IMG/VR virus record: IMGVR_UViG_3300046167_000270
Coordinates: 1-61,974 of that record
Length of the DNA stretch: 61,974 nt
Reading direction: 5' to 3' (one strand)
Source: a virus
Lineage: Duplodnaviria; Caudoviricetes
In this document: piece after piece, positions 1 through 61,974 of the stretch
Layout of the letters: every line of letters starts with the position of its first letter
Position numbering within the stretch: position 1 is the stretch's first letter
Program-made: the position numbers and the translations under genes
Notes under the pieces: model-generated
What the model was told of the DNA's origin: nothing
Database searches by the model: none
The model's input: only the letters and a program-made list of their open reading frames with translations

Positions 1-155
1 ATACCCCCACAATTATATTTTGTATTTTGTTTACAAATCGCATTTTTGTTTTGCGGGTTGGCCGGCTTTTATAGTTTTGTTTTGCATACCTCAACGTTTT
101 CGATGCATTATTGTGTATTTATTTTGACGTTTTACTTTTTACTATTTATATACTA

Positions 156-185
156 CATACTTAATACGATGCGTCATAGATAATA
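156..185 (+). promoter_or_regulatory. Class I phage promoter (variant CATACTTAATACGA-N9-GATAATA)
   Basis: Repeated motif with a fixed 9-nt spacer, upstream of ORF 228. Confidence 0.75.
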
Positions 186-227
186 TAGTATAAACAATAA
201 AACAAATAACAAATTAAATAAATAACT

Positions 228-329
228 ATGAAACTATTAATAATAACTTTAACATCACTAATAACATTGATAACTTATAATGTAATTACTCACGGAATTA
301 TCACTTACATATCATTCAATGGAATTTAA
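228..329 (+). CDS. 33-aa hydrophobic peptide inside the DTR
   Basis: MKLLIITLTSLITLITYNVITHGIITYISFNGI; A-rich leader, downstream of promoter motif. Confidence 0.55.
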   Translation: MKLLIITLTSLITLITYNVITHGIITYISFNGI

Positions 330-400
330 AATGTAAATTACAGAGAATATGTGTAGTACTTCTCTAACTAAAATAACATACAAACAAAGTTACACTTTTA

Positions 401-430
401 CAAACTAAATACGACAGCAACTGGATAATA
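401..430 (+). promoter_or_regulatory. Class I phage promoter
   Basis: CAAACTAAATACGA-cagcaactg-GATAATA. Confidence 0.8.
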
Positions 431-466
431 ATAATAACTAAACTAAATAAATAAATAAATAAAACT

Positions 467-701
467 ATGAAAACTAATAAACTAACTACTAAAAGATTTG
501 TAATAAGAAAATCTTTACTCGGAAATAATACAGTAATCACTTTTACTAACAATAAAAGACGTCACTTTCACTTATGATCATGACGAAATTTATTCAACAT
601 TTCAAAAAAATTTGAAGAATGCCATGTTTCCAACAGTATAATCTTATACAAATAGTAATACTGTTCCAAAATTCTGCAGAGAATTAAGTGAAATATCTTA
701 A
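467..701 (+). pseudogene. Small early gene with apparent frameshifts (MKTNKLTTKRFVIRKSLLG...NTVPKFCRELSEIS)
   Basis: Good start context after a promoter; coding-like sequence continues in shifted frames, likely sequencing indels. Confidence 0.55.
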
Positions 702-769
702 ATAACTAAAGTCTTAGTTCGATAGTAATACTTAGAGACTATAAATATAACGACATATGACTCAGCACA

Positions 770-813
770 TAGCCGAAATGGTTGGAAGTGAGATTCGATT
801 TCTCACTCGGTTA
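770..813 (+). ncRNA. Possible tRNA-like minihelix (acceptor-like stem plus T-arm)
   Basis: TAGCCGA/TCGGTTA stem and GTGAGA-TTCGATT-TCTCAC arm; no anticodon arm. Confidence 0.3.
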
Positions 814-843
814 CAAACTAATTACGACAAAGTGTCGATAATA
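814..843 (+). promoter_or_regulatory. Class I phage promoter
   Basis: CAAACTAATTACGA-caaagtgtc-GATAATA. Confidence 0.8.
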
Positions 844-869
844 TAATAAACTAAATAAAATTAATAACT

Positions 870-1070
870 ATGTATAATCCAAATAATCCTTCAAACTGGT
901 CTTGGTCAAAAGCTTTTGACGAAATGGAAAAGACTGTAAATCAAGCTGAACTTACTCAGCAATGTATAAATCATGTTCTCAATTATCCTGGAGAAGCTAA
1001 CGGTGTCTTCATGACATTAAGTAAATCACAACAAGATGATGTTTATGAACTACTAAATGAAATATTATGA
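870..1070 (+). CDS. Hypothetical early protein
   Basis: ORF after promoter, A-rich start. Confidence 0.8.
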   Translation: MYNPNNPSNWSWSKAFDEMEKTVNQAELTQQCINHVLNYPGEANGVFMTLSKSQQDDVYELLNEIL

Positions 1071-1285
1071 GTAATAATCTAAATACTACAATCGACAAAG
1101 TAGCAATGTCAGAATTTGACATGCACTACTATCAACTTGGTGATAACGAGAAAAAATGGTGTCACGATGAAATGATTAATAACAAAAAATGGTTAGCTCC
1201 ATTTTGGAAACAAGAAGGTTATCAAAGTGAAACTGATAAACTATGTGAAGAACTAGGAATTTTTAACTATAAAACTAATAAATAA
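1067..1285 (+). CDS. Hypothetical early protein
   Basis: ATGA overlap with the previous ORF. Confidence 0.75.
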   Translation: MSNNLNTTIDKVAMSEFDMHYYQLGDNEKKWCHDEMINNKKWLAPFWKQEGYQSETDKLCEELGIFNYKTNK

Positions 1286-1298
1286 TAAATAAATAAAT

Positions 1299-1457
1299 AT
1301 GATAGATAACTATGAATTTGAAATATATTATGGTGAAATAGAAGAACCACTATATTTAACTAACGATAAAAACTATATTTGTGACGACATGAGAGATTTC
1401 ATGGAAGAACTAGGAATAATAATGGAAGAAGTAATATATAAAGTAGAAAAAATATGA
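1299..1457 (+). CDS. Small acidic hypothetical protein (52 aa)
   Basis: Read manually; ATGA overlap with 1454. Confidence 0.6.
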   Translation: MIDNYEFEIYYGEIEEPLYLTNDKNYICDDMRDFMEELGIIMEEVIYKVEKI

Positions 1458-1666
1458 ATAAACTAATAATAGCAGGTATGGTAGCGAGTGGATTACTCGG
1501 TTATAATATCAAAGAAGATGGAACTAAAGTAGAACAAGCTCTTGAAAATGTACAATATGTAAAAAGTTGGGTCTTAGAAGACTTAAACAGTGGAGTGATG
1601 GATAGTGTTTATGCAGAATATTATATAAACACTCTTGATGAAACTGAAAAACTATTAACAAACTAA
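1454..1666 (+). CDS. Hypothetical protein with N-terminal hydrophobic segment
   Basis: ORF track; MNKLIIAGMVASGLLG. Confidence 0.75.
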   Translation: MNKLIIAGMVASGLLGYNIKEDGTKVEQALENVQYVKSWVLEDLNSGVMDSVYAEYYINTLDETEKLLTN

Positions 1667-1688
1667 ATACGACAACTAAAAGATAATA
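1659..1688 (+). promoter_or_regulatory. Class I phage promoter
   Basis: CAAACTAAATACGA-caactaaaa-GATAATA. Confidence 0.8.
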
Positions 1689-1692
1689 CAAT

Positions 1693-1941
1693 ATGAAATA
1701 TATACAAACAGATAACTTAACAGTAATTAACTACGGTGATGGTAGTGGTAAACTACTAATCTACAACAAACATAAGTCTCCTTATGGTTGGTCACCACGT
1801 AGTCTTATTGTATCTCTTTTCGGTAAACAACTCAAAGAAATTACGTACAACTATGTACAAAAAGAAGTAGACAAAGTGTATTCTACTTTCAACTATGATG
1901 AAATACACGAACTAATAACTAAAATAAACAACAATGATTAA
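1693..1941 (+). CDS. Hypothetical early protein
   Basis: ORF immediately after promoter. Confidence 0.8.
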   Translation: MKYIQTDNLTVINYGDGSGKLLIYNKHKSPYGWSPRSLIVSLFGKQLKEITYNYVQKEVDKVYSTFNYDEIHELITKINNND

Positions 1942-2098
1942 AGCAATTAAACTAATAGCGATCAAAGCGGTCGAAGAAAAAATGTTGAAAATATATGCTA
2001 CTATTATGACTACTGTATTCTTAGCAATATGGATACCAACAATGGCTATAGTATTAAAAGATATATTCATGCAAGTAATTTTACCAATATTTAAATAA
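1934..2098 (+). CDS. Small membrane protein (54 aa)
   Basis: Read manually; hydrophobic; fills the gap between ORFs. Confidence 0.6.
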   Translation: MIKAIKLIAIKAVEEKMLKIYATIMTTVFLAIWIPTMAIVLKDIFMQVILPIFK

Positions 2099-2099
2099 T

Positions 2100-2315
2100 A
2101 TGAAGCTAACTAACGAAGAAAAAGACGAGATTACTTGGAGAGTAGTTGACTCACTATACGAAAAACTAGCTAATGAATTAGAATATGAACTACAAGAACA
2201 TGAAAACTTTCCAGAAACTAATGATGCTTATATGAATTTATTCAATGAAATGACAATAAAAATAGTAAAATATATGAGAAGTGAACTATTTTCTCCGGAA
2301 CAAGTGAGGATTTAG
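2100..2315 (+). CDS. Hypothetical early protein
   Basis: ORF track. Confidence 0.75.
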   Translation: MKLTNEEKDEITWRVVDSLYEKLANELEYELQEHENFPETNDAYMNLFNEMTIKIVKYMRSELFSPEQVRI

Positions 2316-2335
2316 AACTTTATAAAAGATAAAAT

Positions 2336-2506
2336 ATGACAGAACAACAAGCAATTGAAGCAATCGCTAATGATATACAGGATGGTATCTACGGTTGGAC
2401 ACAGAAATGTGGAACAGAGTGGCAGAAGTGGACATACTCACTAATGCAAGCAAGAAAAATATATGAAGGTGAACTAATAATAGATTTAGAAAATGGCAGT
2501 AATTAA
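2336..2506 (+). CDS. Hypothetical protein (56 aa)
   Basis: Read manually: MTEQQAIEAIANDIQDGIYGW... Confidence 0.6.
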   Translation: MTEQQAIEAIANDIQDGIYGWTQKCGTEWQKWTYSLMQARKIYEGELIIDLENGSN

Positions 2507-2717
2507 TAGAGGACACGAGTGGGATGCTTTAGACAATATCACTACTAGTGAGTTTGAAGATTCAAAAACATTAAAAGCAATAATGTTCTTAATGATACAA
2601 GAAAATGTAAGAAAAATACCTAACGATCAAGAATTAGGTAGAGAAATAAGAAAAATAGTAAATAATTTTGAAAAAGATGTTAATTCTTCAGAGTATAAAG
2701 ATCTAATGACAAACTAA
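2493..2717 (+). CDS. Hypothetical early protein
   Basis: ORF track; PNDQELGREIR motif. Confidence 0.75.
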   Translation: MAVINRGHEWDALDNITTSEFEDSKTLKAIMFLMIQENVRKIPNDQELGREIRKIVNNFEKDVNSSEYKDLMTN

Positions 2718-2739
2718 ATACGATAACTAAAAGATAATA
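2710..2739 (+). promoter_or_regulatory. Class I phage promoter
   Basis: CAAACTAAATACGA-taactaaaa-GATAATA. Confidence 0.8.
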
Positions 2740-2743
2740 ATAT

Positions 2744-2887
2744 ATGAAAACAATTAAATTTTACCCAAGCGACAGATCACTAATCAGATTAGACGGTCAA
2801 ATGCTAAAAGGCTACACTATTAATAATATACCAGACGAATATACAAGCTGGTTTAACTACAAAGGTCTTACTTACATAACAAGTTGA
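2744..2887 (+). CDS. Hypothetical protein (47 aa)
   Basis: Read manually; starts 4 nt after the promoter motif. Confidence 0.6.
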   Translation: MKTIKFYPSDRSLIRLDGQMLKGYTINNIPDEYTSWFNYKGLTYITS

Positions 2888-2897
2888 CAAACAACTG

Positions 2898-2988
2898 ACG
2901 AAATGTAGTGAACTGGTGAGGGATCGTTATGAACTCAGGATGTACTACAATAGCTCATACTTAACCGGTATGGGCTTTTCGTGGTATG
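2898..2988 (+). ncRNA. Structured 5' leader RNA element, copy 1
   Basis: P1 ACGAAA/TTTCGT, P2 TGTAGTG/TACTACA, P3 AGCTCATAC/GTATGGGCT, then GGT-ATG. Confidence 0.7.
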
Positions 2989-3429
2989 AAATGTAACCAC
3001 AATATTCCACAAGCAAGATTAGATCTCGGATATACTGTCTGTGTCGAGTGTTCAACTGAAGAAAAACTCGGTTGTATTGACACTATCAACCATAAAACTG
3101 GCAATACTGTTCAAGTAATGTCACGTGAAGATGCAGACAAAGCTAGTAAATTAACAAAACGAGCAGGTTTTGGTATACTAAGATCTATGTCTGGTGGTTC
3201 AAGTCAACGTAAAACTAAATATAAATACGATGGATGCTCAACTACTTATGTAGGTAACGACGTTATGTTCGAGCAAGTAGGTAAAACTTACATCGATTTC
3301 TTAGATGTTGACAAAGAAATTGCAGAGCGCTATCTCGATCGAGCGCTAAACAATCTAGAAATATCTCAATTACAATATAATAAGATAAAACTACTTTGTA
3401 ACAGACTAAATACGATCACTATTAGATAA
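2986..3429 (+). CDS. Protein with DksA/TraR-like Zn-finger motif
   Basis: C-x3-IP-x2-RL-x6-CxxC. Confidence 0.7.
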   Translation: MKCNHNIPQARLDLGYTVCVECSTEEKLGCIDTINHKTGNTVQVMSREDADKASKLTKRAGFGILRSMSGGSSQRKTKYKYDGCSTTYVGNDVMFEQVGKTYIDFLDVDKEIAERYLDRALNNLEISQLQYNKIKLLCNRLNTITIR

Positions 3430-3431
3430 TA
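3402..3431 (+). promoter_or_regulatory. Class I phage promoter
   Basis: CAGACTAAATACGA-tcactatta-GATAATA. Confidence 0.8.
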
Positions 3432-3444
3432 TATTAAATAATAT

Positions 3445-3603
3445 ATGAATAAAATAACAAAACAACTCGAAAACTTGTATTCTTGGACAAAATTCTATCA
3501 AGATCGAGGTAATAAAGAACAAATAAGAAAGTGTCAAACTGAAATCGCACAGTTAAAACAAGCGTTTAATCAACTAAAATCTAACAAAAATGGCAAAAAA
3601 TAG
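3445..3603 (+). CDS. Hypothetical protein (52 aa)
   Basis: Read manually; after promoter. Confidence 0.6.
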   Translation: MNKITKQLENLYSWTKFYQDRGNKEQIRKCQTEIAQLKQAFNQLKSNKNGKK

Positions 3604-3985
3604 AACGCTAAACGAAATTAGACAATCAAAAGAGTATCAAACAGCTAGAGAAACAGTAGGTAAATACGAAGATTGTACAGGTGACGTTAAAACTGGCCAC
3701 GCTGCTGTAGCTTTAAAAGAATTAAAAGGTGAAAACTTTTATAAAAATCCTTTTTCTCATGCAGATGTAGACAAAACTGTTGAAACAATAGTAGAAAAGC
3801 TAGATGGTCACATGTATGACTTAATATTTCAAGCAGTTTGTGATGAAATGAATAATCACTATGTGTTTGACTCAACAGAATACTTAACTCAAGCAGGTTT
3901 AGAACTATTTGAAGACGAATGGTTCGAGTTTTATCATGAAAATCATGGTAAAATAATTCATAAACTACTAAAAAACTTAAAATAA
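3590..3985 (+). CDS. Hypothetical early protein
   Basis: ORF track. Confidence 0.8.
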   Translation: MAKNRTLNEIRQSKEYQTARETVGKYEDCTGDVKTGHAAVALKELKGENFYKNPFSHADVDKTVETIVEKLDGHMYDLIFQAVCDEMNNHYVFDSTEYLTQAGLELFEDEWFEFYHENHGKIIHKLLKNLK

Positions 3986-4191
3986 TGAAAAAATTTAACG
4001 GAATGGAGTCAAAACTTATAATTGACGCACTTGACTACTACATAACACAAGTAGAAAAAGATATATTAGAATTAGAAAAAGACGGTAAAAGATCTATATT
4101 TGCACCAGGTTTTTACACTAATATATCAAATGACTTAAAATATAAAGTAAAGTCTATGACTAAAAAAGAAAAATATTTAATTACAGACTAA
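3985..4191 (+). CDS. Hypothetical early protein
   Basis: TAATG coupling with the previous ORF. Confidence 0.75.
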   Translation: MKKFNGMESKLIIDALDYYITQVEKDILELEKDGKRSIFAPGFYTNISNDLKYKVKSMTKKEKYLITD

Positions 4192-4213
4192 ATACGAACA
4201 CTAAAAGATAATA
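4184..4213 (+). promoter_or_regulatory. Class I phage promoter
   Basis: CAGACTAAATACGA-acactaaaa-GATAATA. Confidence 0.8.
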
Positions 4214-4218
4214 TAAAT

Positions 4219-4440
4219 ATGTTATACGATAAATTAAAACCACATATCAAAGATAAGTTGAAAGAAAATGCTGAAGAGTATAAATCTGTACAATGGCTAT
4301 TTGATAAACTAAAACAAAAAGACAATTATTCTGAATTAACTATTGACGACATAAGATCTCTCTGTACATTTGGCGATGTATGGTATCATGATCTTACTCA
4401 GTCACAGATTATATGGGGTGAATGGCTAATAAATAAATAA
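4219..4440 (+). CDS. Hypothetical early protein
   Basis: ORF after promoter. Confidence 0.8.
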   Translation: MLYDKLKPHIKDKLKENAEEYKSVQWLFDKLKQKDNYSELTIDDIRSLCTFGDVWYHDLTQSQIIWGEWLINK

Positions 4441-4442
4441 AT

Positions 4443-4796
4443 ATGAACGAAGAAAAACTAGCAATAGAAACATTAAAAGCACTAGGTGCTAAAGATACAT
4501 CAAGTCCATCTCAAGTAAAAAGAGGTACAACTTGCTTTACATTACCTACAGGTACGTGTATATCTGAACACAGAACAGGTTATATTAGAAAAAATCTACT
4601 AAACAAAAATGGTAGTATTTACACCTGTTATCAACTAAATCCGCAATATAAATCTGCTCACAAAGTAATATCAAGAGAAGGTAAACTATACGAGTGGGAA
4701 CATAATAAAAGAATGTTGATAAATAATAGAGCTGAAAGACTAAAGAGACTTGTATTATATGCAATTAAAGATATAAATCAAGCAAATGGAGAATGA
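4443..4796 (+). CDS. Hypothetical early protein
   Basis: ORF track. Confidence 0.8.
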   Translation: MNEEKLAIETLKALGAKDTSSPSQVKRGTTCFTLPTGTCISEHRTGYIRKNLLNKNGSIYTCYQLNPQYKSAHKVISREGKLYEWEHNKRMLINNRAERLKRLVLYAIKDINQANGE

Positions 4797-4876
4797 TGAA
4801 CGAGACTTAGCGTTAATACTATTTGCATTAGCGCTAATATTTTACATAACTATGCTAACTATAAAATTAATTTAAA

Positions 4877-5326
4877 ATGGAATCAAAAGAACCAACACAA
4901 GAAAAAATAATAGAAGCTGTAAAAAAGTATTACGGCTTAAAAATAGATGAAAACGCTTATCAAAGCGCTGATGTATATGCTTACGAAGAAACAACTGCAG
5001 ATGGATATTCTGTATATGTTGTAACTAATGATATGAATAGTGTATGTATAAACGAAGATGTATATTATTATGAATCTGACATACCTGAAGCTATTATGGA
5101 ACAAATAAATTATTCTAATGGCGAATGCGTGCTATATGCAGATCAATACTTTCTAGATGATATATACTTTGATGATGTATTACTAGAAGCATTTCAAGAC
5201 ATAGCAGATAAGATATATGACGAAATTATGAATGAAGACAGTGATTACAACTTTGACATGGCAGAACTGCAATGGCTAAAAGAAGAATTTACTGAATCAG
5301 AAGAGATTAATCAGACTGTTAGTTAG
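4877..5326 (+). CDS. Highly acidic hypothetical protein
   Basis: ORF track; D/E/Y-rich. Confidence 0.8.
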   Translation: MESKEPTQEKIIEAVKKYYGLKIDENAYQSADVYAYEETTADGYSVYVVTNDMNSVCINEDVYYYESDIPEAIMEQINYSNGECVLYADQYFLDDIYFDDVLLEAFQDIADKIYDEIMNEDSDYNFDMAELQWLKEEFTESEEINQTVS

Positions 5327-5344
5327 TTAATAGTAGTTTAGTTT

Positions 5345-5419
5345 CCACGAAATATATAAAGCGACCAGTGATCTTTTGATCGGCTCGTACCGTAAATGGT
5401 ACGGGCTTTTCGTGGTATG
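5345..5419 (+). ncRNA. Structured 5' leader RNA element, copy 2
   Basis: P1 CCACGAAA/TTTCGTGG, P2 GATC-TTTT-GATC, P3 GGCTCGTACC/GGTACGGGCT, then ATG. Confidence 0.7.
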
Positions 5420-5632
5420 AATAATATAAATATGATGAAAGCGTTTATGTTGCTAGGAGATCTATCAACTAAACAAGGTGAAGAACTGTCAGACATGGCA
5501 GTGAAATACCAAGAAAGAATAGCTTTTGCTACAATGAGAGCTAGCATACCTGATTGGCAACCACCAAGTAACTGGGATGAGTTAAGTAATGCAGAAAAAC
5601 ATAAAAGACTTAAAAAGTTACAATCAGTATAA
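5417..5632 (+). CDS. Hypothetical protein (start placed at the ATG after the RNA element)
   Basis: In frame with ORF 5396..5632. Confidence 0.75.
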   Translation: MNNINMMKAFMLLGDLSTKQGEELSDMAVKYQERIAFATMRASIPDWQPPSNWDELSNAEKHKRLKKLQSV

Positions 5633-5634
5633 TA

Positions 5635-5664
5635 CAAACTAAATACGATAACTAATGGATAATA
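5635..5664 (+). promoter_or_regulatory. Class I phage promoter
   Basis: CAAACTAAATACGA-taactaatg-GATAATA. Confidence 0.8.
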
Positions 5665-5669
5665 TTAAT

Positions 5670-5987
5670 ATGAAAGAAGATGCAATTGAAAAATTAGCTC
5701 AACTGTTATTTGATAAAATAATGGAAAAGCAAGAAGAAGCAGACTTAGAGTATGCTGATCAAATTACAAAACTAGTTAATCAAGGCTACACTATATCTGA
5801 TATTACAAGTAATAAAACAGATGAACTAGGCTTAAATGCTGAAGAAAGACTTGTAGGTGAATTAGCTAGGCTGCAAACTATTATGATGATCTTTGAAGAC
5901 AAAGAAGAATATGAAAAAGCAGCAATGATACAAAAGAAAATAGAAAAAATAAATATTAAATTAAATCATGGAAGTGGAAAATATTAA
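5670..5987 (+). CDS. Protein with C-terminal UVR (UvrB/UvrC-type) coiled-coil motif
   Basis: EDKEEYEKAAMIQKKI. Confidence 0.7.
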   Translation: MKEDAIEKLAQLLFDKIMEKQEEADLEYADQITKLVNQGYTISDITSNKTDELGLNAEERLVGELARLQTIMMIFEDKEEYEKAAMIQKKIEKINIKLNHGSGKY

Positions 5988-6822
5988 AGCAATGCTTGCT
6001 CACAAATACAATGAGGACAAAGCAGATTACCCCGCGTTCATACAACCAAAACTAGATGGCGTACGCTGTCTATTTACTGCCAAAGGCGCGTTCTCTCGTG
6101 CTAATAATCAGTTTATGAATGTAGATCACATAACTAAAGATTTAAAGCCTGTATTCGACAGATACCCTACTTTAATTCTTGATGGCGAACTATATAATCA
6201 CGGTCTAAAAGATGACTTTGAAAAGATTATATCTCTTGTAAAGAAGAAAAAACCAACAGATGCTGACAAAGCAGAAGCTGCAGAACTAGTACAATATCAT
6301 ATATATGATGTAGCTAGTTTTCCTCATGCTACTTATACTTGGCGTATGAATTTTATAAATACTCTTAATCATTCAGCTATGTTTAGAACTAGCAATTGCT
6401 TGTGTATAAGTGATACTCAAGTTGTATTAGACTTTGATGAAGCTCTTAAAATGCATAAGAAAAACCTTAAACTAGGTTATGAAGGCAGTATATACAGATC
6501 TATGGAAGGTAAATACAAAGGTACTAGATCATGGGATCTTATGAAGTTCAAAGACTTTCACGATGCAGAAGCTACAATAATTGACTTTGTTGCAGGTAAA
6601 GGTAAAAGAACAGGTACACTAGGTAAATTTATAATGCAAGATCACGAAGGTGTTGTATTCGGTTGTCCTCCAGGTAAAGGTTACAACTATGATGACCTTG
6701 CTGAAATGCTAGAAAATGCTGCACAATATATAGGTCAATGGGCTACATTTACATACTTCGAGCGTACAAAAGCTGGAAGCTACAGACATCCACATTACAA
6801 ATGCTTACGTAATTATGAATGA
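5968..6822 (+). CDS. lig: ATP-dependent DNA ligase
   Basis: KLDGVR, LDGELY, EGSIYR, LMKFK motifs; OB-fold C-terminus. Confidence 0.95.
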   Translation: MEVENIKAMLAHKYNEDKADYPAFIQPKLDGVRCLFTAKGAFSRANNQFMNVDHITKDLKPVFDRYPTLILDGELYNHGLKDDFEKIISLVKKKKPTDADKAEAAELVQYHIYDVASFPHATYTWRMNFINTLNHSAMFRTSNCLCISDTQVVLDFDEALKMHKKNLKLGYEGSIYRSMEGKYKGTRSWDLMKFKDFHDAEATIIDFVAGKGKRTGTLGKFIMQDHEGVVFGCPPGKGYNYDDLAEMLENAAQYIGQWATFTYFERTKAGSYRHPHYKCLRNYE

Positions 6823-6879
6823 AGAAAAAGATGAATTAGCAGAAAGATATTTTGCTATAATAGAAGAAATGATAAAATA

Positions 6880-7035
6880 ATGAGTGATCCAATAAGCTAT
6901 ATGCCTTGGCTGAAGAAAAATGAATGGCAAAGCGATTTATACTACTGCGAAATGTGCAGTGAATTTATGACAGAAGAACATCACAATTTTTGTGATATAT
7001 GCGACAAATGCAGAGACGAATACCCTGAATTATGA
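6880..7035 (+). CDS. Small Cys-rich (Zn-finger) protein, 51 aa
   Basis: Read manually: CEMC...CDICDKC. Confidence 0.6.
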   Translation: MSDPISYMPWLKKNEWQSDLYYCEMCSEFMTEEHHNFCDICDKCRDEYPEL

Positions 7036-7118
7036 GAAAATTAATATGGCAATTATATAATGACAATATGATCAGCGAAGAAGTTGCTCACATGTTATTA
7101 GACAAACACTACGAATAA
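7032..7118 (+). CDS. 28-aa peptide ending inside RNA element copy 3
   Basis: MRKLIWQLYNDNMISEEVAHMLLDKHYE; ATGA overlap. Confidence 0.5.
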   Translation: MRKLIWQLYNDNMISEEVAHMLLDKHYE

Positions 7119-7180
7119 TGCCTTACAATTTAAAATAAGGTTAGCTCACACTGGAAACGGTGTGGGCTTTCGTAGGTATG
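7109..7180 (+). ncRNA. Structured 5' leader RNA element, copy 3
   Basis: P1 CTACGAA/TTCGTAG, P2 GCCTTA/TAAGGT, P3 AGCTCACACTG-GAAA-CGGTGTGGGCT, then ATG. Confidence 0.7.
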
Positions 7181-7351
7181 ATAGAGAAATTTATGAAAAA
7201 AAGACGATGTTTATCTCATAAAAGATATGTATCGCATAGAATGCAAGAATTGCAAAATGAAATATTCCAAGAAGCAATGGATACTGGTCTTGTAAACTTA
7301 GAAAAAAGAAAACAATTATTAAAATATAAAAACCATTTAAAATTTTTATGA
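7178..7351 (+). CDS. Hypothetical basic protein
   Basis: In frame with ORF 7160..7351. Confidence 0.65.
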   Translation: MIEKFMKKRRCLSHKRYVSHRMQELQNEIFQEAMDTGLVNLEKRKQLLKYKNHLKFL

Positions 7352-7458
7352 AAAATTCAGACTGGATATTAAGAAAAAGCCAAGAATGGCTTGATGAAGA
7401 AATAAACTCAAGAGGTTTAAAAAATGAACATGAGTTATACCTAGCTACATTGCATGGG

Positions 7459-7502
7459 GTGACACATGGTACTAAAGATATAGAGTAAGGGGCAAATGTC
7501 AC
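7459..7502. promoter_or_regulatory. GTGACA-N32-TGTCAC inverted-repeat site overlapping the HTH gene start
   Basis: Same geometry recurs at 61545-61588. Confidence 0.65.
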
Positions 7503-8116
7503 ACCGAGATTTAAGATATTTAAATAATAATAGAATTATATATCGTAGATATTCTTCAGATATACCTACATCTAGCCATAGCTGGGGTTGGTATTATGCT
7601 GATGGTACTTATGGGTACTATGCTCTATTTAATAATAAAGCTAAAATTAATACTATTAGATCGCTTAAATGGCATTTGTTAACTCTTTGGTATTTAAATC
7701 CGGTCTTAGATAAAAATAAATTTAAAGAACTTGCTGAGTATATAATTTATAAACAAAATGGATTTGTTACTTTCAGCATAGGAAATAAACTTATTAAACA
7801 AGTTGTTGAAGATGTATTTAAACAAGATCTTGATGTACCACCTAAAAATAGATTACGTAAACTAGTATTTAAAGACTCTAGTGGATTATCTACAACTGAA
7901 AAATTACAAATTGTAGGAAAAATAATAGGTCAAGCTAAAGGTATTAAACAAGATGATGTTTATGAAGCTATGCTATACATACATGAACAAGGTAAAATAA
8001 CAATACCTAAGATAGCTAAAGCATTGAAATGTACCGAGCGCACTATCTACAGACACATGAGTGAAGAACTCAAAGAAGAAAAAAAACTTTTAAATAAACA
8101 ATATGAAAAAGTATAA
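7496..8116 (+). CDS. DNA-binding protein with C-terminal HTH (Rep/initiator-like)
   Basis: ITIPKIAKALKCTERTIYRHM helix-turn-helix. Confidence 0.8.
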   Translation: MSHRDLRYLNNNRIIYRRYSSDIPTSSHSWGWYYADGTYGYYALFNNKAKINTIRSLKWHLLTLWYLNPVLDKNKFKELAEYIIYKQNGFVTFSIGNKLIKQVVEDVFKQDLDVPPKNRLRKLVFKDSSGLSTTEKLQIVGKIIGQAKGIKQDDVYEAMLYIHEQGKITIPKIAKALKCTERTIYRHMSEELKEEKKLLNKQYEKV

Positions 8117-8858
8117 TATAAAAAACTACATCAGGTATATAGATGATAGAAAAAGATCTATACAAAAACGTAAAAAAGAAAAGATTTGTAGACTACACTC
8201 CAGCAGAACTTAAAGTTATATTTTTACCTTTAGTAGAAAATATATCTAGAAAATTTGCAACTTCACAAGAAGCTTCAGGTGTTATGTCTATTATGGATAT
8301 AATGCAAGAAGGTAAGCTTACAGCTATGTAAAGCAGTAGATAAAATAGATAGAACAAGACTAGTGCAATCTGAAGACGTAGAACAAACTTTAAAATCTTT
8401 TTAGCTAAAAGAATAAGAGGCGGCATACGCAGAGCTATTGACACTAACAGAGGTACAATGCGTATACCAGAACATAAATTAAATGAAATGAGGAAAGATG
8501 GTGGTAAAGATAAAAAATGGTTGCTATGTTTTTTAATAGCATATTTTTAAGTATAGATGCTAATCCATCTGATGAAAATATGGTTTATCAAATACCTGAT
8601 AAATCAGATCCTTACAATGAAACACTGCTTAATGCTTATATAATGAGTTTATTAACTAAACACTTAACTTCTGATGAAGTTTTTGTTTTAAGTAAAAGCT
8701 ATGGCCTTGATGGTAAAAAATGGTCTGCTAATGATATAGCAGCAGGCTTTAGAAATAAAGGTGTATCTGCATATGTAAGAGTATCAGAGTTAAAAAAGCA
8801 AGCAGTAAACAAGTTAATAGATAATGTAGATCACTCGCAAGTGATTGATTATCTGTAA
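8103..8858 (+). CDS. sigma70-family RNA polymerase sigma factor (split by several indels)
   Basis: Across frames: DIMQEG..LCKAVDKID..KRIRGGIRRAI..TMRIPEH (region 2), FLSID, region-4-like VLSKSYGLDG..ANDIA..VRVSELKKQAVNKL. Confidence 0.85.
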
Positions 8859-8870
8859 ATTAACAAATAA

Positions 8871-8889
8871 ATATGTAATTATATATATA
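8871..8889 (+). promoter_or_regulatory. Class II promoter candidate ATATGTAATTATATATATA
   Basis: Identical 19-mer on the - strand at 54252-54270. Confidence 0.55.
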
Positions 8890-9440
8890 TGACAATAAAC
8901 CAAAAATTAACCAAAATTCAAACGAAGTTTAAATCGAAAGAAGAGTAGATTTAACTCATTCGGCAAGTATTATTTCCGATCTGCTGAAGACATCCTAGAA
9001 GCTACAAAACCCTTTTTAAAGGAGTTAGACGTATCAGTTGTAATCAAAGAAGAATTAATTTCTTTGATCCACCTGTTATGCAAGTTACCGCTAGATTATC
9101 TAATGGTAAAGAAGAAACAGGTACAGGTAATACTAAATCTGTTTCAGCTGTAGCTATTGTAGGTGTCGACTTAGATCAGAAAGGCATGCAAATGCCACAA
9201 CGATACGGTGCAGCTAGTTCTTACGGTAAGAAATATGCACTAGGTAATTTGTTTTTAATCGATGATACACAAGACGCTGATGCAACTAATAATCACGGTA
9301 AAAAAGCAGTACAACAAGCTATGAGCTCAGCTCAATTAAAATCTGCTAAAGACTACGTAAAGTCTGGAGGAAAAGTTGACGCAATAAAAGCAAAATATAC
9401 ATTAACAAAAGCTCAAGAGAAAGAATTAGCAACGTTATGA
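8889..9440 (+). CDS. ERF-family ssDNA-annealing protein (frameshifted)
   Basis: KYYFRSAEDILEA and GAASSYGKKYAL..DDTQDAD. Confidence 0.85.
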
Positions 9441-10171
9441 AAAACAAAAAAGAAGTATTAGAGAAGCTGAAGGATGATGAACATTACTATGGCGAATATG
9501 GTAGAAACTTTATATCTAACTCAGATATAAGAACACTAATGACAAATCCGCTTGAGTTCAAAAAGCCAACTCCATCAGCTCCTCACTTTCTTATAGGAGG
9601 CTATTTTCACACTGCTATTCTTGAACCAGATAAGATCAAGAATTTTAAAATAGTAGAAGCTAGCTCACGTAATACAAAAGCATACAAAGAAATAACAGAC
9701 GGAGAAGTTTGTTTGTTACAACATGAGGTTGACAAGATCGAAGCGTTAGTTGAAAAGATGATGAACAATAAAGTTTGTCGTGATCTTATACACGCTGAAG
9801 GTAATGAGTTTGAAGTTCCAGGTGTTGCTGAATTAGCAGGCAACTGGTGGAAAGGTAAAGCTGATATTGTTAACCACAGTGAAAAATTAGTTATTGATTT
9901 AAAGACTACTGCAGACTTAGAAAAGTTTCATTGGTCAGCTAAGAAATATAACTATGATTCACAAGCTTTTGTATATAAGAACTTATTTGGCTATGATATG
10001 TTATTCATGGCTATAGATAAGAATACAGGTCAGATCGGTGTATATGATTGCTCAGATAACTTTTATCAAACAGGTTTTGATAAGGTTGAAAAAGCATCTG
10101 AAATATATGATCTGTTCTTTAACAACAAGGATTTCGATCCTAATAATTACTTTATAAATAAAACCCTATAA
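9437..10171 (+). CDS. PD-(D/E)XK exonuclease, RecE/exonuclease VIII-like
   Basis: ISNS, GGYFHTAILEP, KGKAD, IDLKTT, YDSQAFVY. Confidence 0.85.
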   Translation: MKNKKEVLEKLKDDEHYYGEYGRNFISNSDIRTLMTNPLEFKKPTPSAPHFLIGGYFHTAILEPDKIKNFKIVEASSRNTKAYKEITDGEVCLLQHEVDKIEALVEKMMNNKVCRDLIHAEGNEFEVPGVAELAGNWWKGKADIVNHSEKLVIDLKTTADLEKFHWSAKKYNYDSQAFVYKNLFGYDMLFMAIDKNTGQIGVYDCSDNFYQTGFDKVEKASEIYDLFFNNKDFDPNNYFINKTL

Positions 10172-10172
10172 T

Positions 10173-10496
10173 ATGGCAGGAATAGTAAAAGCAAGTATCA
10201 ATTTAAATGCAATTGATAAAAGTCAAAATAATCGAAGGCAAGAAAGGTAAATACCTACCTATTACGATTACAGTTAATGACGAGCCAGATCAGTTTGGTA
10301 ATCAAGGTCCTGTTTGTATAGAGCAGACTAAAGAAGAAAGAGAAGCTAAAGCTGCTAAGACTTATTTAGGTAATGTTAAAGTCTATGGACTAATGGAACA
10401 TTCCCTGAAAAAGTACCTTACGAAGGTGGAGGACTGCTCCACAGACCACAAAATAAACCACAAGCAGTAGCTGCTGATCCAGATCTACCATTTTAA
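10173..10496 (+). CDS. Single-stranded DNA-binding protein (frameshifted)
   Basis: MAGIVKASINL..GKKGKYL..; acidic C-terminal tail ADPDLPF. Confidence 0.7.
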
Positions 10497-10509
10497 TTAA
10501 ATCAAATAA

Positions 10510-12221
10510 ATGCAAGTCGAAGATAAAGAAATAAATGGTTTCTTAATTGAAACTTTTAATCAGCACGGCTTAGAAGTAGGTAAAACGCAGGGGATTTGTC
10601 CCCTGTGTTCATCTTCTAGGAAACCTGAAAATAAGAAAGCTAAATGCTCTTCTTATGATTGGGAACGTGGTATCGGTACTTGCCATAACTGTGACAAATC
10701 TTTCCAATTACATACGTTTAAACGTAAAGGCAAAGCTGAGCGTGAGTATGTAATGCCTGAAGTAAAACATAAGCCAGTTGAATCTAAAGTTATTGATTGG
10801 TTTAAAACAAGAGGGAATATCTAAACAAACCTTAGATGAGGTTGGTGTAGGTGAAGGTAAAGAGTTTATGCCACAGACCGGTAAACCCGAGAATACTATT
10901 CAGTTTAATTATTATGTAGGTGGAAACCTAACTAATGTTAAATATAGAGATGGTCGTAAAAACTTTAAGCTATATAAAGGAGCTGAAAAAGTATTTTACA
11001 ATATAGACAGTATTGTTGGTCATGATACTTGTGTTATAGTTGAAGGCGAAATGGATGTACTTGCTATACACGAAGCTGGCTACACTCCAGTTGTATCAGT
11101 ACCAAACGGTGCTACGTTAAATACAAACAACCTAGATTATCTAGATAATTGTATTGATTACTTTGAAGATAAGAAAAAGATAATCATTGCAGTTGATGAT
11201 GATCCACCTGGTGTTGCATTGCAACAAGAGCTTATACGTAGGCTTGGTGCTGAGGTTTGTTTTATAACTACGTTTGATGATTGTAAAGATGCTAATGAAT
11301 ACTTAACTAAGCACGGCTCTAAGGAGCTAATGTCACGTATTGAAATAGCACATCCTGTACCTCTTGAAAACGTTACAACATTTAGAGACATCGAAGACGA
11401 AGTTACAGACTTTGTTCGTAATGGTTTTAAACGTGGTTTTCAAATAGGTTTACATAACTTTGATAATATCTTTTCTACTTATACTAAACAGTTTATAACT
11501 GTAACAGGTGTACCTAGTTCAGGTAAATCAGATTTTGTAGATCAAATGTGCGTAGGTTATAATAGAGAGTATGGTTGGAAAACAGCGTTTGCATCTCCTG
11601 AAAACGCGCCTACATATTTACATGCACATAAGTTAATGCGTAAAGTATGGGGTGATATGCCTAATAAAGGCGATATTGGCGGTGATAAATGGAATCAAGT
11701 TGCAAGTCATGTTAATGATAACTTTTTCTTTATTGATATGGAACGTTATACATTAGAGTCAGTATTACGTAAAGGAGCTGAGCTAGTTAAGCGTAAAGGT
11801 ATTAAATGCCTTGTTATTGATCCATATAATAAAGTTAGAGACACTGATTGTCAAACAGAGGATGTTAACCGCTATACAATGGAATACTTAACTAAGATCG
11901 AAACTTTTGCAAAGAAAGTATGATGTATTAGTATTTATTGTTGCACATCCAACTAAGATGTATAAAGGCCAAGATGGTAAAATCGAAGAGCCAACGATGT
12001 ATAATATAAAAGGTGGTGGTGAATGGTATGATGCTAGTTACCACGGCTTATTAGTTCATAGAGACTACGAAAATAAAACAACAAAAGTTAAGGTATTGAA
12101 ATGTAAGTTTCAAAACTTAGGCGAGAACGGAGCTGAAGCCCATTTTACTTGGGAACCAAAGTCTGGTTGCTTTGTTCCACATGAGATGCCTGACTTAGAT
12201 GAAAAAATGCCTTGGGACTAA
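10510..12221 (+). CDS. T7 gp4/Twinkle-like primase-helicase (three frame segments)
   Basis: Zn ribbon CPLC..CHNC; TOPRIM VEGEMD/DDD; Walker A GVPSSGKS; VIDP; VAHP. Confidence 0.92.
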
Positions 12222-12475
12222 AGAAATTTACGTTTGACGAAGTTAAATGGACTAAAGAAGACAAACAAGCTTACAGGTGGTGTGTTAATCACGGAATTAA
12301 AATAGGTGTATTAGCTGCTACACCAGGCTTTGATGTTGGATCTTGGAAAATACGTATCGTTGCAAACAATAAAGAAATGATTAGCCCAGGAGATTATAGT
12401 AGAACAGAAATATATCCTAAAGTATTTGAAATGTATAGACATTATTACAAACTAAATACGAAGGGTAAACGATAA
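12212..12475 (+). CDS. Hypothetical protein
   Basis: ORF track. Confidence 0.75.
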   Translation: MGLKKFTFDEVKWTKEDKQAYRWCVNHGIKIGVLAATPGFDVGSWKIRIVANNKEMISPGDYSRTEIYPKVFEMYRHYYKLNTKGKR

Positions 12476-12477
12476 TA
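12448..12477 (+). promoter_or_regulatory. Class I phage promoter
   Basis: CAAACTAAATACGA-agggtaaac-GATAATA. Confidence 0.8.
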
Positions 12478-17155: not shown

Positions 17156-17189
17156 AAAAAGGGGAGGTCATTACGACTTCCCCTTTTTT
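17156..17189. terminator. Bidirectional rho-independent terminator
   Basis: AAAAA-GGGGAGGTC-ATTAC-GACTTCCCC-TTTTTT between convergent arms. Confidence 0.9.
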
Positions 17190-17237
17190 GGTTACAGGAA
17201 CTTTTGGGTATGGTGCCCAGTTTTATTGTGTTCCTCG

Positions 17238-61619: not shown

Positions 61620-61974
61620 ATACCCCCACAATTATATTTTGTATTTTGTTTACAAATCGCATTTTTGTTTTGCGGGTTGGCCGGCTTTTATAGTTTTGTT
61701 TTGCATACCTCAACGTTTTCAATGCATTATTGTGTATTTATTTTGACGTTTTACTTTTTACTATTTATATACTACATACTTAATACGATGCGTCATAGAT
61801 AATATAGTATAAACAATAAAACAAATAACAAATTAAATAAATAACTATGAAACTATTAATAATAACTTTAACATCACTAATAACATTGATAACTTATAAT
61901 GTAATTACTCACGGAATTATCACTTACATATCATTCAATGGAATTTAAAATGTAAATTACAGAGAATTCATGTG
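61620..61974. repeat. Right direct terminal repeat
   Basis: Copy of 1-353, including the class I promoter at 61775-61804. Confidence 0.95.

Follow-up and report, generated by a model that had tools for sequence, protein, structure and literature searches.

A repeated, covarying hairpin with a fixed-length tail in the early gene block of a phage clade

An element consisting of a conserved hairpin and a 10-nt tail occurs exactly three times in the window, a complete 62-kb record (61,974 nt) of an uncultured marine phage, at 2953-2985, 5383-5416 and 7144-7177, always on the + strand and within the early block. The hairpin, P3, combines an invariant base, GCUC..GGGC with a U·G wobble, and a covarying upper stem, and an invariant GGUA closes the tail. 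Structurally it is a two-part hairpin that can carry inserts, not a fixed three-way junction. The observation made in the original prediction is confirmed in part, and its functional interpretation is partly supported. The reading that we tentatively prefer, although its probability falls clearly short of even, is that of a cis-acting RNA 'punctuation' in the early polycistronic message of this phage clade. The upstream message would be terminated or attenuated there, at a hairpin that protects it, and the downstream message, leaderless or with a short leader, would have its 5' end defined by the element.

Re-reading the sequence bore out the three sites originally claimed (2898-2988, 5345-5419 and 7109-7180), which also take in an outer helix (P1) and a variable insert (P2). 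Their parts are as follows, with bit scores from the covariance model R1.
2898-2903, + strand: copy 1, P1 5' strand ACGAAA, pairing with 2977-2982 in the fold
2904-2951, + strand: copy 1, variable insert P2, not conserved (relatives have other sequence or none)
2953-2975, + strand: copy 1, conserved hairpin P3, GCTCATAC..GTATGGGC (60.7 bits; -11.8 kcal/mol)
2976-2988, + strand: copy 1, 10-nt tail TTTTCGTGGT and ATG of a 147-aa gene (2986-3429)
5345-5352, + strand: copy 2, P1 5' strand CCACGAAA, pairing with 5408-5415 in the fold
5353-5382, + strand: copy 2, variable insert with a small hairpin, GATC-TTTT-GATC (P2), in the fold
5383-5406, + strand: copy 2, conserved hairpin P3, GCTCGTAC..GTACGGGC (59.3 bits; -16.1 kcal/mol)
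5407-5419, + strand: copy 2, tail TTTTCGTGGT and ATG of a 71-aa gene (5417-5632)
7109-7115, + strand: copy 3, P1 5' strand CTACGAA in the fold, the final codons of a small ORF (7032-7118)
7119-7142, + strand: copy 3, insert P2 in the fold, the GCCTTACAATTTAAAATAAGGT module
7144-7167, + strand: copy 3, conserved hairpin P3, GCTCACAC..GTGTGGGC, GAAA loop (49.3 bits; -17.6 kcal/mol)
7168-7180, + strand: copy 3, tail TTTCGTAGGT and ATG of a 57-aa gene (7178-7351)

The pattern GCTC-N-GGGCTTT matches the window three times, on the + strand only, a number reached in none of 100 shuffles of the window, and the 17-mer GGGCTTTTCGTGGTATG is identical in copies 1 and 2, two occurrences likewise being reached in 0/100 shuffles. 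With filters off, R1 gives three hits in the window (E 4e-10 to 6e-13), the next having E 0.11. Beyond the window, 32 out of 36 related IMG/VR records contain R1 matches, between one and six each, and the pattern scan yields at least 133 distinct instances in at least 117 metagenome stretches. The covariance model has no match in three named or isolate relatives. No match was found in real bacterial genomes either (just three of the 32 genome_contigs stretches are real, all three being contigs of 627-2018 bp); the element is not a host signal. A search of Rfam returned nothing that passed the gathering threshold and, up to E 10, nothing overlapping the elements, and no description of this element was found in the literature searched. 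The suggestion of a possibly undescribed RNA therefore stands as regards families and published descriptions, but its layout is already known from the ESAS/SAS of Cluster K mycobacteriophages.

Hairpin P3 carries the strongest evidence. The covariation claimed for its middle pairs in the three copies (AT/AT, GT/AC and AC/GT) recurs in relatives: in an alignment of 28 sequences 96.7% of cells are paired, four pairs have both sides changed, and the covariation score was reached in 0/500 shuffles. The U·G wobble retained in all three copies and the GAAA loop of copy 3 are likewise as first described. Stems are 9-10 bp long and loops approximately 4-8 nt, with inserts of 28-49 nt within the loop in some variants among the relatives; insertions in this loop and at the junction are characteristic of RNA elements whose recognition site is the helix base. 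When 54 distinct P3 sequences were scored by a strand-neutral rule, the non-Watson-Crick cells comprised seven G·U, one A·C (in a doubtful row) and three others, the invariant U·G being additional. These G·U cells would read as A·C mismatches on the opposite strand, so that folding of the + strand is favoured, and the wobbles point to the sense strand, i.e. RNA, as the probable folded form. The tail keeps its 10 nt while its letters shift (TTTTCGTGGT, TTTCGTAGGT, TTTGTGTGGT, TTTTGGTGGT and ATTTGTAGGT); that of copy 3 has one T fewer and one A more than those of copies 1 and 2.

The outer parts are more variable. On the + strand, all three copies have the P1/P2/P3 junction originally proposed as their minimum free-energy fold (z = -2.1, -4.7 and -6.9), but this junction is not a conserved unit. 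By manual count, about 17 of the 49 distinct upstream contexts lack P2, and P2 sequences are mutually unrelated or shuffled among copies; because P2 is optional, the conserved core is a two-helix hairpin. In one public contig the copy 1 P2 region is replaced, 2887 being joined to 2949 via 22 different letters, and the GCCTTACAATTTAAAATAAGGT module of copy 3 also lies within copy-1-type elements (L121, L123, L140 and L143) and 3' of elements (L148, L158 and L170). P1 is a flanking helix formed by the tail with upstream sequence, and its support is weaker than that for P3. The claimed compensatory change is present, CCACGAAA/TTTCGTGG in copy 2 against CTACGAA/TTCGTAG in copy 3, which swaps C-G for U-A between the two types; single P1 helices, however, are no better than those of shuffled upstream sequence. 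In 13 P2-less rows selected by hand by the authors, 98.5% of P1 cells are paired and the innermost pair is GC in nine, CG in two, AU in one and other in one, and P1 is absent or doubtful in several contexts (L158:1627, L135, L189 and L191). The P1 wobble changes of copy-3-type elements fall at third codon positions of the upstream ORF, where they are synonymous, and need not reflect selection on pairing.

The start codon had been placed exactly 9 nt after P3 in every copy. This distance holds in all three window copies (9 nt past GGGCT, 10 past GGGC), but across the set of 149 distinct downstream contexts an ATG begins at the A of GGUA, with an ORF of at least 35 codons, in 102. Those 102 show 48 different six-residue N-termini, falling into approximately 12-15 dissimilar types when grouped by eye. 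The remaining 47 have an A-rich leader, a promoter-like motif (next in about ten) or a further copy (next in a few) instead, the next start lying 16-46 nt beyond or behind another signal. As claimed, the element-linked starts lack the A-rich leader, with one A in positions -20 to -1 at each of the three against 3-16 at the 32 other listed + strand starts; their paired, G+C-rich context is the opposite of the other window starts and of the start context of F. johnsoniae in the part of that study drawn on here (PMC6847099). Nine promoter-like motifs occur in the genome, and at five of them the ATG is phased 5-7 nt behind GATAAT, a layout of the leaderless kind.

On its own, a 9-10-bp G+C-rich hairpin with UUU(U) behind it resembles a terminator. 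It is possible, if doubtful, that the element is a leaky intrinsic terminator (attenuator) in which P3 and the U run halt part of early transcription, so that the 147-aa gene, the 71-aa gene and the replication and recombination block at 7178-12440 are expressed weakly or late, perhaps after phage-induced antitermination. The hairpins are stable (-11.8 to -17.6 kcal/mol) with T3-4 next to them, an upstream A-rich partner can extend the stem as in Rho-independent terminators, and a terminator scan detects copy 2. The copies are intergenic on one strand, downstream of promoter-like motifs at 2709, 4183 and 5634, with none between 5634 and 12447. A promoter-like motif directly follows the element in L130, L132 and L165, L181/G035 has three copies in about 320 nt, and for the 47 contexts without ATG at the A, some with a promoter-like motif or further copy, a plain terminator fits at least equally well. 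However, the U run is only 3-4 long, beginning with A in one lineage (ATTTGTAGG), whereas the clear terminator of the same genome (17157-17199) has six T and an unrelated stem; the element is not employed where the + strand block ends; and 28-49-nt loops are unusual for terminators. Termination also leaves unexplained the invariant stem base and GGTA, the fixed 10-nt tail, P1 and the 102/149 starts at the A, and a gene beginning 10 nt past an efficient terminator would be without a promoter of its own.

Under this alternative, sequence conservation would arise from recombination between copies, as in the PeSL (promoter-early stem-loop) cassettes of T4-type phages (Comeau et al., 2014, PMC4122927; Arbiol et al., 2010, PMC2839356). 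In the portions of that work used here, PeSLs are repeated stem-loops at gene boundaries in variable early regions, end at the next start codon, are conserved in the stem within one genome and are tied to gene replacement and inter-copy deletion (PMC4122927). Unlike the element, they have both a sigma70-like promoter and a Shine-Dalgarno site in the interval from stem-loop to ATG (PMC4122927), for which a hairpin-ATG gap of just 10 nt leaves no room here; in this phage the promoter-like motif forms a repeat of its own.

An unlikely alternative is a translational operator or enhancer, in which a phage protein, or the ribosome itself, would recognise the P3 base together with the tail, and initiation at the AUG lying 10 nt further on would thus be set or repressed; P1 would be the closed conformation, which ribosomes translating the upstream ORF would open. 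Such a device would suit a host not using Shine-Dalgarno pairing, and is consistent with the fixed spacing, the fusion to many dissimilar genes and the invariant, wobble-bearing helix base. For copy 3 and related elements, the preceding ORF terminates within or just past the P1 5' strand; as had been claimed, the 28-codon ORF 7032-7118 of copy 3 has its TAA immediately after that strand. In copy 1 the strand starts 11 nt past the TGA of ORF 2744-2887. The stop upstream of copy 2, however, lies 19 nt before P1, which is beyond what a terminating ribosome opens. The AUG is elsewhere in 47/149 contexts, and no binding protein was identified. A translation-initiation role has also been suggested for ESAS/SAS, a short asymmetric conserved sequence of unknown function directly at the start codons of a gene subset (Pope et al., 2011, PMC3203893). 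As far as the excerpted account goes, an imperfect inverted repeat with a variable spacer precedes the start-linked sequence there too, in a single orientation, in the non-structural genome half and ahead of unrelated genes, but SAS (GGGATAGGAGCCC, Shine-Dalgarno-like in our reading) has no sequence likeness to the element and 11-19 copies per genome against one to six matches per record (PMC3203893). The inferred Flavobacteriia host lacks Shine-Dalgarno pairing, and base-pair covariation, sense-strand wobbles, the outer helix, the strictly fixed distance and the ATG fused to the motif set the element apart from SAS as described in that excerpt.

Early promoters of phage N4 use the template strand and have hairpins with a 5-7-bp stem and a 3-nt loop. 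It is improbable that the element is a DNA-hairpin promoter of this style, extruded, recognised by an injected or phage-modified polymerase and starting at the A of GGTA. Three conserved early-region hairpins in a podovirus-like genome with a giant (2962-aa) virion-type protein are shared with the N4 system, whose hairpin promoters serve a virion RNA polymerase (PMC4496689), conservation ends at the A where many genes start, and the promoter-like motifs are phased to ATG too. Against this, the wobbles lie on the coding strand, the stems of 9-10 bp and loops of approximately 4-8 nt or with 28-49-nt inserts are unlike those of N4, and P1 pairing spans up to about 100 nt, which double-stranded DNA disallows. 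The search for a polymerase gave no PDB relative up to E 1, only a polynucleotide-kinase hit, and DxDxD is absent from both giant proteins. Least probable of all is that the hairpin has no regulatory role and is kept as a recombination site or selfish mini-element shuffling early gene cassettes: public contigs do join 5351 to 7119 (linking copy 2 with copy 3 at the cost of 1767 nt) and 2986 to 3445 (gene removed), downstream genes vary against a constant upstream context and P3 type, and hairpin modules relocate among the P2 position, P3 loop and downstream leader, but the copies are strictly oriented and confined to the early block, none of the scanned ORFs looked like an integrase-type recombinase, and the tail and P3 base are invariant across records with ligases only 60-97% identical, which argues for selection on a function.

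In the punctuation model, P3 with its short U run would terminate or attenuate the upstream message and leave a protective 3' hairpin. The downstream 5' end would be created sequence-specifically at GGU^A, most likely through endonucleolytic cleavage at a distance gauged from P3. Neither a nuclease nor an RNA-binding protein was identified among the early genes. The downstream message would then begin at the AUG itself or with a short A-rich leader, and P1 would hold the start region closed in unprocessed read-through RNA. A contig assembled from an RNA library, of a kind that shows no RNA ends, runs from about 2740 through a P2-less form of copy 1 to 3137, so that uncut read-through RNA, or DNA in the library, exists. 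RNase III sites of phage T7 are irregular hairpins with a lower stem, internal loop and upper stem. As excerpted, the T7 account has several related hairpins between genes of one early transcript, where cutting one strand can provide the upstream message with a stabilising 3' hairpin and release the downstream start region (Nicholson, 2014, PMC3867540). There is no sequence likeness to that described part, cleavage here is only proposed, and the end predicted at GGU^A falls beyond the helix, not in an internal loop; the strict sequence conservation of the element suggests a factor more specific than RNase III. Together with ESAS/SAS and PeSLs, the T7 signals are the closest known analogues. 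The acting factor would probably be phage-encoded, given that bacterial genomes lack the motif, and homology between copies would also make the element a crossover point for exchanging gene cassettes.

The element recurs three times in the window, with its conserved hairpin P3 at 2953-2975, 5383-5406 and 7144-7167 (copies 1, 2 and 3), exactly where the original prediction had placed it. In each copy P3 has the form GCTC-xx-AC ... GT-xx-GGGC; its stem is followed by TTTT or TTT (ATTT in one lineage) and then CGT(G/A)GG, and a tail of 10 nt leads to the ATG (TTTTCGTGGT in copies 1 and 2, TTTCGTAGGT in copy 3). The hairpin pattern matches the window three times, and three or more matches were reached in none of 100 shuffles; two exact matches to a 17-mer were likewise never equalled or exceeded (0/100 shuffles). 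A covariance model of P3 and the tail (R1), run on the window with its filters off, recovers the three copies at E < 1e-9, the next match having an E value of 0.11, and all three lie on the + strand within 2.9-7.2 kb. The + strand of each copy folds into a junction of an outer helix (P1), an insert or hairpin (P2) and P3 (z = -2.1, -4.7 and -6.9), the - strand folds being weaker, and the P3 fold energies range from -11.8 to -17.6 kcal/mol with loops of 4-6 nt. The starts behind the copies are indeed poor in adenine, with one A in positions -20 to -1 at all three against 3-16 at 32 other listed + strand starts, and the ORF upstream of copy 3 (7032-7118) does end in a TAA immediately 3' of the P1 5' strand. 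Upstream of copy 2, at 5320-5344, the stretch TAGTTAGTTAATAGTAGTTTAG has stops in every frame and is kept in relatives along with the P1 5' strand of that copy.

Several other identities were considered for the element and rejected. A hammerhead-like core is limited to CTGACGA in copy-1 types, with no stem II and with unconserved junction letters; an ARAGORN search for a tRNA-like fold or RNase Z substrate was empty; a T-box-like reading (UGGU) found no Rfam match; an ECF-sigma or Bacteroidota -7 promoter in the tail fits poorly by eye; and no integrase to accompany an integron attC-like site was seen among the ORFs scanned. The tail and start have no good antisense match that could act in trans; the search gave 19 matches where 16 were expected.

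The window is a complete IMG/VR virus record (61,974 bp, G+C about 32%, estimated completeness 98%). Its portal protein shares 42-50% identity with the portal proteins of Flavobacterium phage elemo, Maribacter phage Panino, Cellulophaga phages and an uncultured podovirus record, and its host is therefore probably a member of the Flavobacteriia. The features to which the following paragraphs refer are listed here.

Features of the window (coordinates, strand where assigned, description)
1-17 kb, + strand: block of small early ORFs, ligase, HTH protein, Erf, PDDEXK nuclease, primase-helicase, ThyA-like enzyme, MazG and ribonucleotide reductase
155-184, 400-429, 813-842, 1658-1687, 2709-2738, 3401-3430, 4183-4212, 5634-5663 and 12447-12476, + strand: promoter-like repeat ACAAACTAAATACGA-N9-GATAAT
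61774-61803, + strand: the same repeat, within the terminal repeat
2986-3429: gene for a 147-aa protein, behind copy 1
7119-7142: hairpin module GCCTTACAATTTAAAATAAGG, P2 of copy 3; also P2 of copy-1-type elements elsewhere, and found downstream in L148, L158 and L170 (related IMG/VR loci)
17157-17199: bidirectional intrinsic terminator where the + and - strand blocks converge, AAAA GGGGAGGTC .. GACTTCCCC TTTTTT
17.2-61.4 kb, - strand: block of the 2962-aa protein, structural genes, portal, terminase and GroEL
17238-26126 and 31053-35609, - strand: 2962-aa and 1518-aa virion-type proteins

Neither virion-type protein contains a DxDxD motif, and a sequence search of PDB found no relative of the 2962-aa protein, whose sole PHROG match is a polynucleotide-kinase-like stretch (residues 2118-2296). 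The 147-aa protein has an N-terminal C..H/CxxC cysteine pattern (MKCNHNIPQARLDLGYTVCVEC), which is reminiscent of zinc fingers of the DksA/TraR type; it has no match in Pfam or PHROGs, even at E values up to 10, and a DksA/TraR-like identity was set aside.

All ten matches to the promoter-like repeat are on the + strand, a number reached in none of 100 shuffles. An ATG lies 5-7 nt past GATAAT at five of the nine unique sites, so that leaderless messages seem to be routine for this phage. The interval from 5634 to 12447 is free of the motif, so that the replication block (7178-12440) lies behind copy 3 only. Within copy 3 itself, ACAAAC-ACT-ACGA-N9-TACAAT (7104-7129) comes near to the geometry of the repeat, two letters shorter; as a candidate promoter it could start a transcript inside P2, in which case the replication block would gain a promoter and P3 would lie near the 5' end of that message.

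The structure of the element was assessed in relatives, which were collected through a ligase search (24 IMG/VR loci) and an exact-pattern scan (37 further stretches). A whole-element MAFFT alignment misplaced the P1 5' strand, owing to inserts of differing length; P3 and the tail were therefore modelled alone (R1) and P1 was examined separately. The covariation claimed for P3 holds in the relatives: in 28 sequences 96.7% of the cells are paired and four pairs are changed on both sides (one of them A-U in 15 sequences and G-C in 10), the covariation score was reached in 0 of 500 shuffles, and sliding the partner by one column reduces pairing to 32-49%. The foot of the helix (G-C, C-G, U.G, C-G) is invariant in 52 distinct P3s save for one change of G-C to C-G. 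P3 is a solid helix. Its arms measure 9-10 nt and its spacers about 4-8 nt, and at least five records have 28-49 nt inserted into the loop. Its strand can be judged from 54 distinct P3 sequences whose hairpins were picked by Watson-Crick pairs only, a strand-neutral choice: apart from the invariant U.G, the non-Watson-Crick cells comprise seven G.U, one A.C (in a doubtful row) and three others. Sense-strand G.U cells would be A.C mismatches on the opposite strand, and P1 spans up to about 100 nt; both observations point to single-stranded sense RNA as the folding molecule, and speak against either a DNA palindrome bound by protein or a hairpin of the template strand.

The outer parts of the element fared less well. 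P1 shows compensatory changes (CCACG/CGTGG, CTACG/CGTAG, CTACA/TGTGG and CTGCC/GGTGG), but taken singly its helices are no better than those of shuffled upstream sequence, the difference failing to reach significance for most copies. Where P2 is missing, a 5-7-bp complement of the tail directly adjoins P3 in about nine distinct upstream contexts, and P1 (5-8 bp) then stacks on P3 (9-10 bp) across a junction of 0-6 / 1-4 nt to make a single hairpin; an alignment of 13 P2-less rows gives 98.5% pairing in P1, a figure biased by the hand-picking of those rows for geometry. P1 is absent from several contexts (L158:1627, L135, L189 and L191), and it is real but less secure than P3. P2 is not a conserved part of the element, since in about 17 of 49 distinct upstream contexts only 0-6 nt separate the P1 5' strand from P3. 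The three-way junction of the original prediction thus describes the fold of each window copy and is incidental to the family. P2 sequences are mutually unrelated, and individual small hairpin modules are found again at other positions: they serve as P2 in L121, L123, L140, L143 and L187 (for example ATAGTGCCTTACAATTTAAAATAAGG and ACTGTCGT..ACAGG), and another module forms P2 in L123 and lies within the P3 loop in L187. These modules resemble mobile mini-inserts or the leftovers of deletion between tandem copies. L181 / L188 (record G035, about 950-1270) has three tandem copies of the element in about 320 nt, uninterrupted by any ORF.

In relatives the tail is always 10 nt long and always ends in GGTA despite shifting letters: copy-3 types have lost one T and gained one A, and L148, L192 and L189 show other variants. 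The fixed position of the ATG, seen in all three window copies, is only partly general: in 102 of the 149 distinct downstream contexts listed an ATG with an ORF of at least 35 codons begins at the A of GGTA, but the other 47 have no ATG there. The N-termini of the 102 fused ORFs take 48 different six-residue forms, which fall by eye into some 12-15 dissimilar types. The 47 contexts without a fused ATG mostly place an A-rich leader of 16-46 nt ahead of the next start, and contain a promoter-like motif in about ten cases and a second copy of the element in a few; the core function is therefore independent of the AUG, although the A of GGTA is a favoured and precise site for it. According to PMC6847099, structure near the start reduces initiation in F. 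johnsoniae and upstream adenines increase it, and 87% of predicted transcripts have leaders longer than 10 nt. The paired, A-poor context of the fused starts should block ordinary initiation in such hosts.

Of 36 related records, 32 contain one to six R1 matches each; the four that lack a match comprise two fragments and the most distant pair of records (ligase 54-56% identical). Two distant relatives without the element, L137 and L139, have promoter-like repeats ending in GATAATAT and no repeated hairpin analogous to the element. At E values up to 0.01, R1 has no match in MW202828, Flavobacterium phage elemo or Maribacter phage Panino, and no isolate phage matches window positions 2700-7700 at the nucleotide level. 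In 185,579 species genomes the pattern matched 32 stretches, three of which score as real (59-62 bits), all on contigs of 627-2018 bp in metagenome bins. The JGI, ENA and TARA metagenomes contain at least 117 stretches with the pattern, holding at least 133 distinct instances, and the element is, by contig names, common in marine samples; a looser IMG/VR pattern with 14 specified bases gave 117 single, unrelated matches (L004-L120), which were set aside. The element corresponds to no Rfam family: the whole window has no match to Rfam 15 at the gathering score, none of the four weak matches in 2850-7250 at E values up to 10 falls at an element, and a literature search found no description of it. 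By this distribution the element is specific to one clade of uncultured phages, and is no host signal.

Exchange at the element is visible in contigs assembled from four RNA-library runs (two oligo-dT), which were used for bridges and joints only. In one public run (X16), a joint 5351>7119 fuses copies 2 and 3 with the loss of 1767 nt including the ligase, a joint 2986>3445 removes the 147-aa gene exactly from its ATG, and a joint 2887>2949 leaves copy 1 without P2; two contigs end at 5335, which is uninformative because the insert region varies between strains. In relatives the P3 type travels with its upstream context and the gene behind it varies. The first two joints and the varied genes recall the gene replacement and deletion at PeSLs of T4-type phages, with which the element shares a stem-loop-to-ATG layout and cassette shuffling; according to PMC4122927, however, a PeSL carries a sigma70-like promoter and a Shine-Dalgarno site between stem-loop and ATG, inside the cassette, whereas the element has 10 nt there and its promoter-like motif is a separate repeat. 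The nearest described feature is the ESAS/SAS of Cluster K mycobacteriophages (PMC3203893). This asymmetric repeat of 13 bp lies at the starts of some non-structural genes; half of its copies follow imperfect inverted repeats of 17 bp whose spacer varies, and its function is given as unknown. It and the element are both short asymmetric repeats at some start codons, in one orientation and in the non-structural half, with an inverted repeat of variable spacer just upstream (P3 in the element). The SAS sequence GGGATAGGAGCCC and the element tail TTTTCGTGGTA indicate analogy only and no common descent.

Any reading of the element has to explain a sense-strand structure with an invariant foot and tail, the 10-nt ruler, the tolerance of inserts, the fusion to many paired, A-poor starts and the lack of an AUG in a third of cases. 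The reading that accounts for more of these facts than any other, and that we prefer tentatively, is an RNA punctuation signal. The structure and the start-codon phasing are observed; at the RNA ends, we infer that P3 would end or attenuate the upstream message, or shield it after a cut, and that GGU^A would be the 5' end given to the downstream message, which would then be leaderless or have a short A-rich leader. The irregular-hairpin anatomy of the T7 RNase III signals (lower stem, internal loop, upper stem), likewise placed between early genes, is shared by the P2-less forms of the element, whose flanking genes presumably lie on one transcript. The element is best regarded as an analogue, and not a member, of the ESAS/SAS, the PeSLs and the T7 RNase III signals, to which it is unrelated in sequence.

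An attenuator or plain terminator is possible, if doubtful. It accounts for the hairpin and the U run, and P3 in the window copies is stable, G+C-rich and short-looped; GGUA, the 10-nt ruler, P1 and the start-codon fusion are left unaccounted for, and such a terminator would deprive the fused genes of a promoter. In relatives the loop can hold inserts of 28-49 nt, and a terminator scan (5 T in 8) detects copy 2 alone, via a partial stem. The terminator at 17157-17199 is of textbook form, unrelated to the element in stem and sequence, and has six T where the element has TTTT/TTT or ATTT.

Rather less probable is a start signal based on structure, formed by the hairpin with its 10-nt tail and serving a host without Shine-Dalgarno pairing. 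A phage-specific cut at GGU^A might turn the internal genes of a polycistronic message into leaderless messages, or the helix base might dock on the small ribosomal subunit, with the AUG 10 nt on in the decoding site; if true, such a mode of intra-operon translation start would be undescribed in bacteria and in their phages. A translational operator or enhancer, which would act at the same fused starts, is unlikely. A DNA-hairpin promoter is improbable, as the wobbles lie on the coding strand and P1 pairs over up to about 100 nt. Promoters of phage N4 are small template-strand hairpins with stems of 5-7 bp and 3-nt loops, unlike the 9-10 bp stems, the loops of about 4-8 nt or longer and the coding-strand wobbles seen here; the 2962-aa protein offers no sign of an N4-type virion RNA polymerase, though a very divergent enzyme could escape. 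A site serving recombination only, as the contig joints might suggest, is the least probable reading.

The element is a real, conserved and covarying RNA motif family, new to the catalogues, with a quantified link to start codons. To our knowledge, the control of early gene expression in phages of Bacteroidota is almost unknown, as is translation without Shine-Dalgarno pairing in Bacteroidota. Even if merely a conserved attenuator, the element would still be a new RNA family suited to Rfam. Annotators of this phage clade can use it to mark genuine start codons and the boundaries of cassettes, and it poses a testable question, namely whether leaderless messages arise by processing or ribosomes are recruited by structure.
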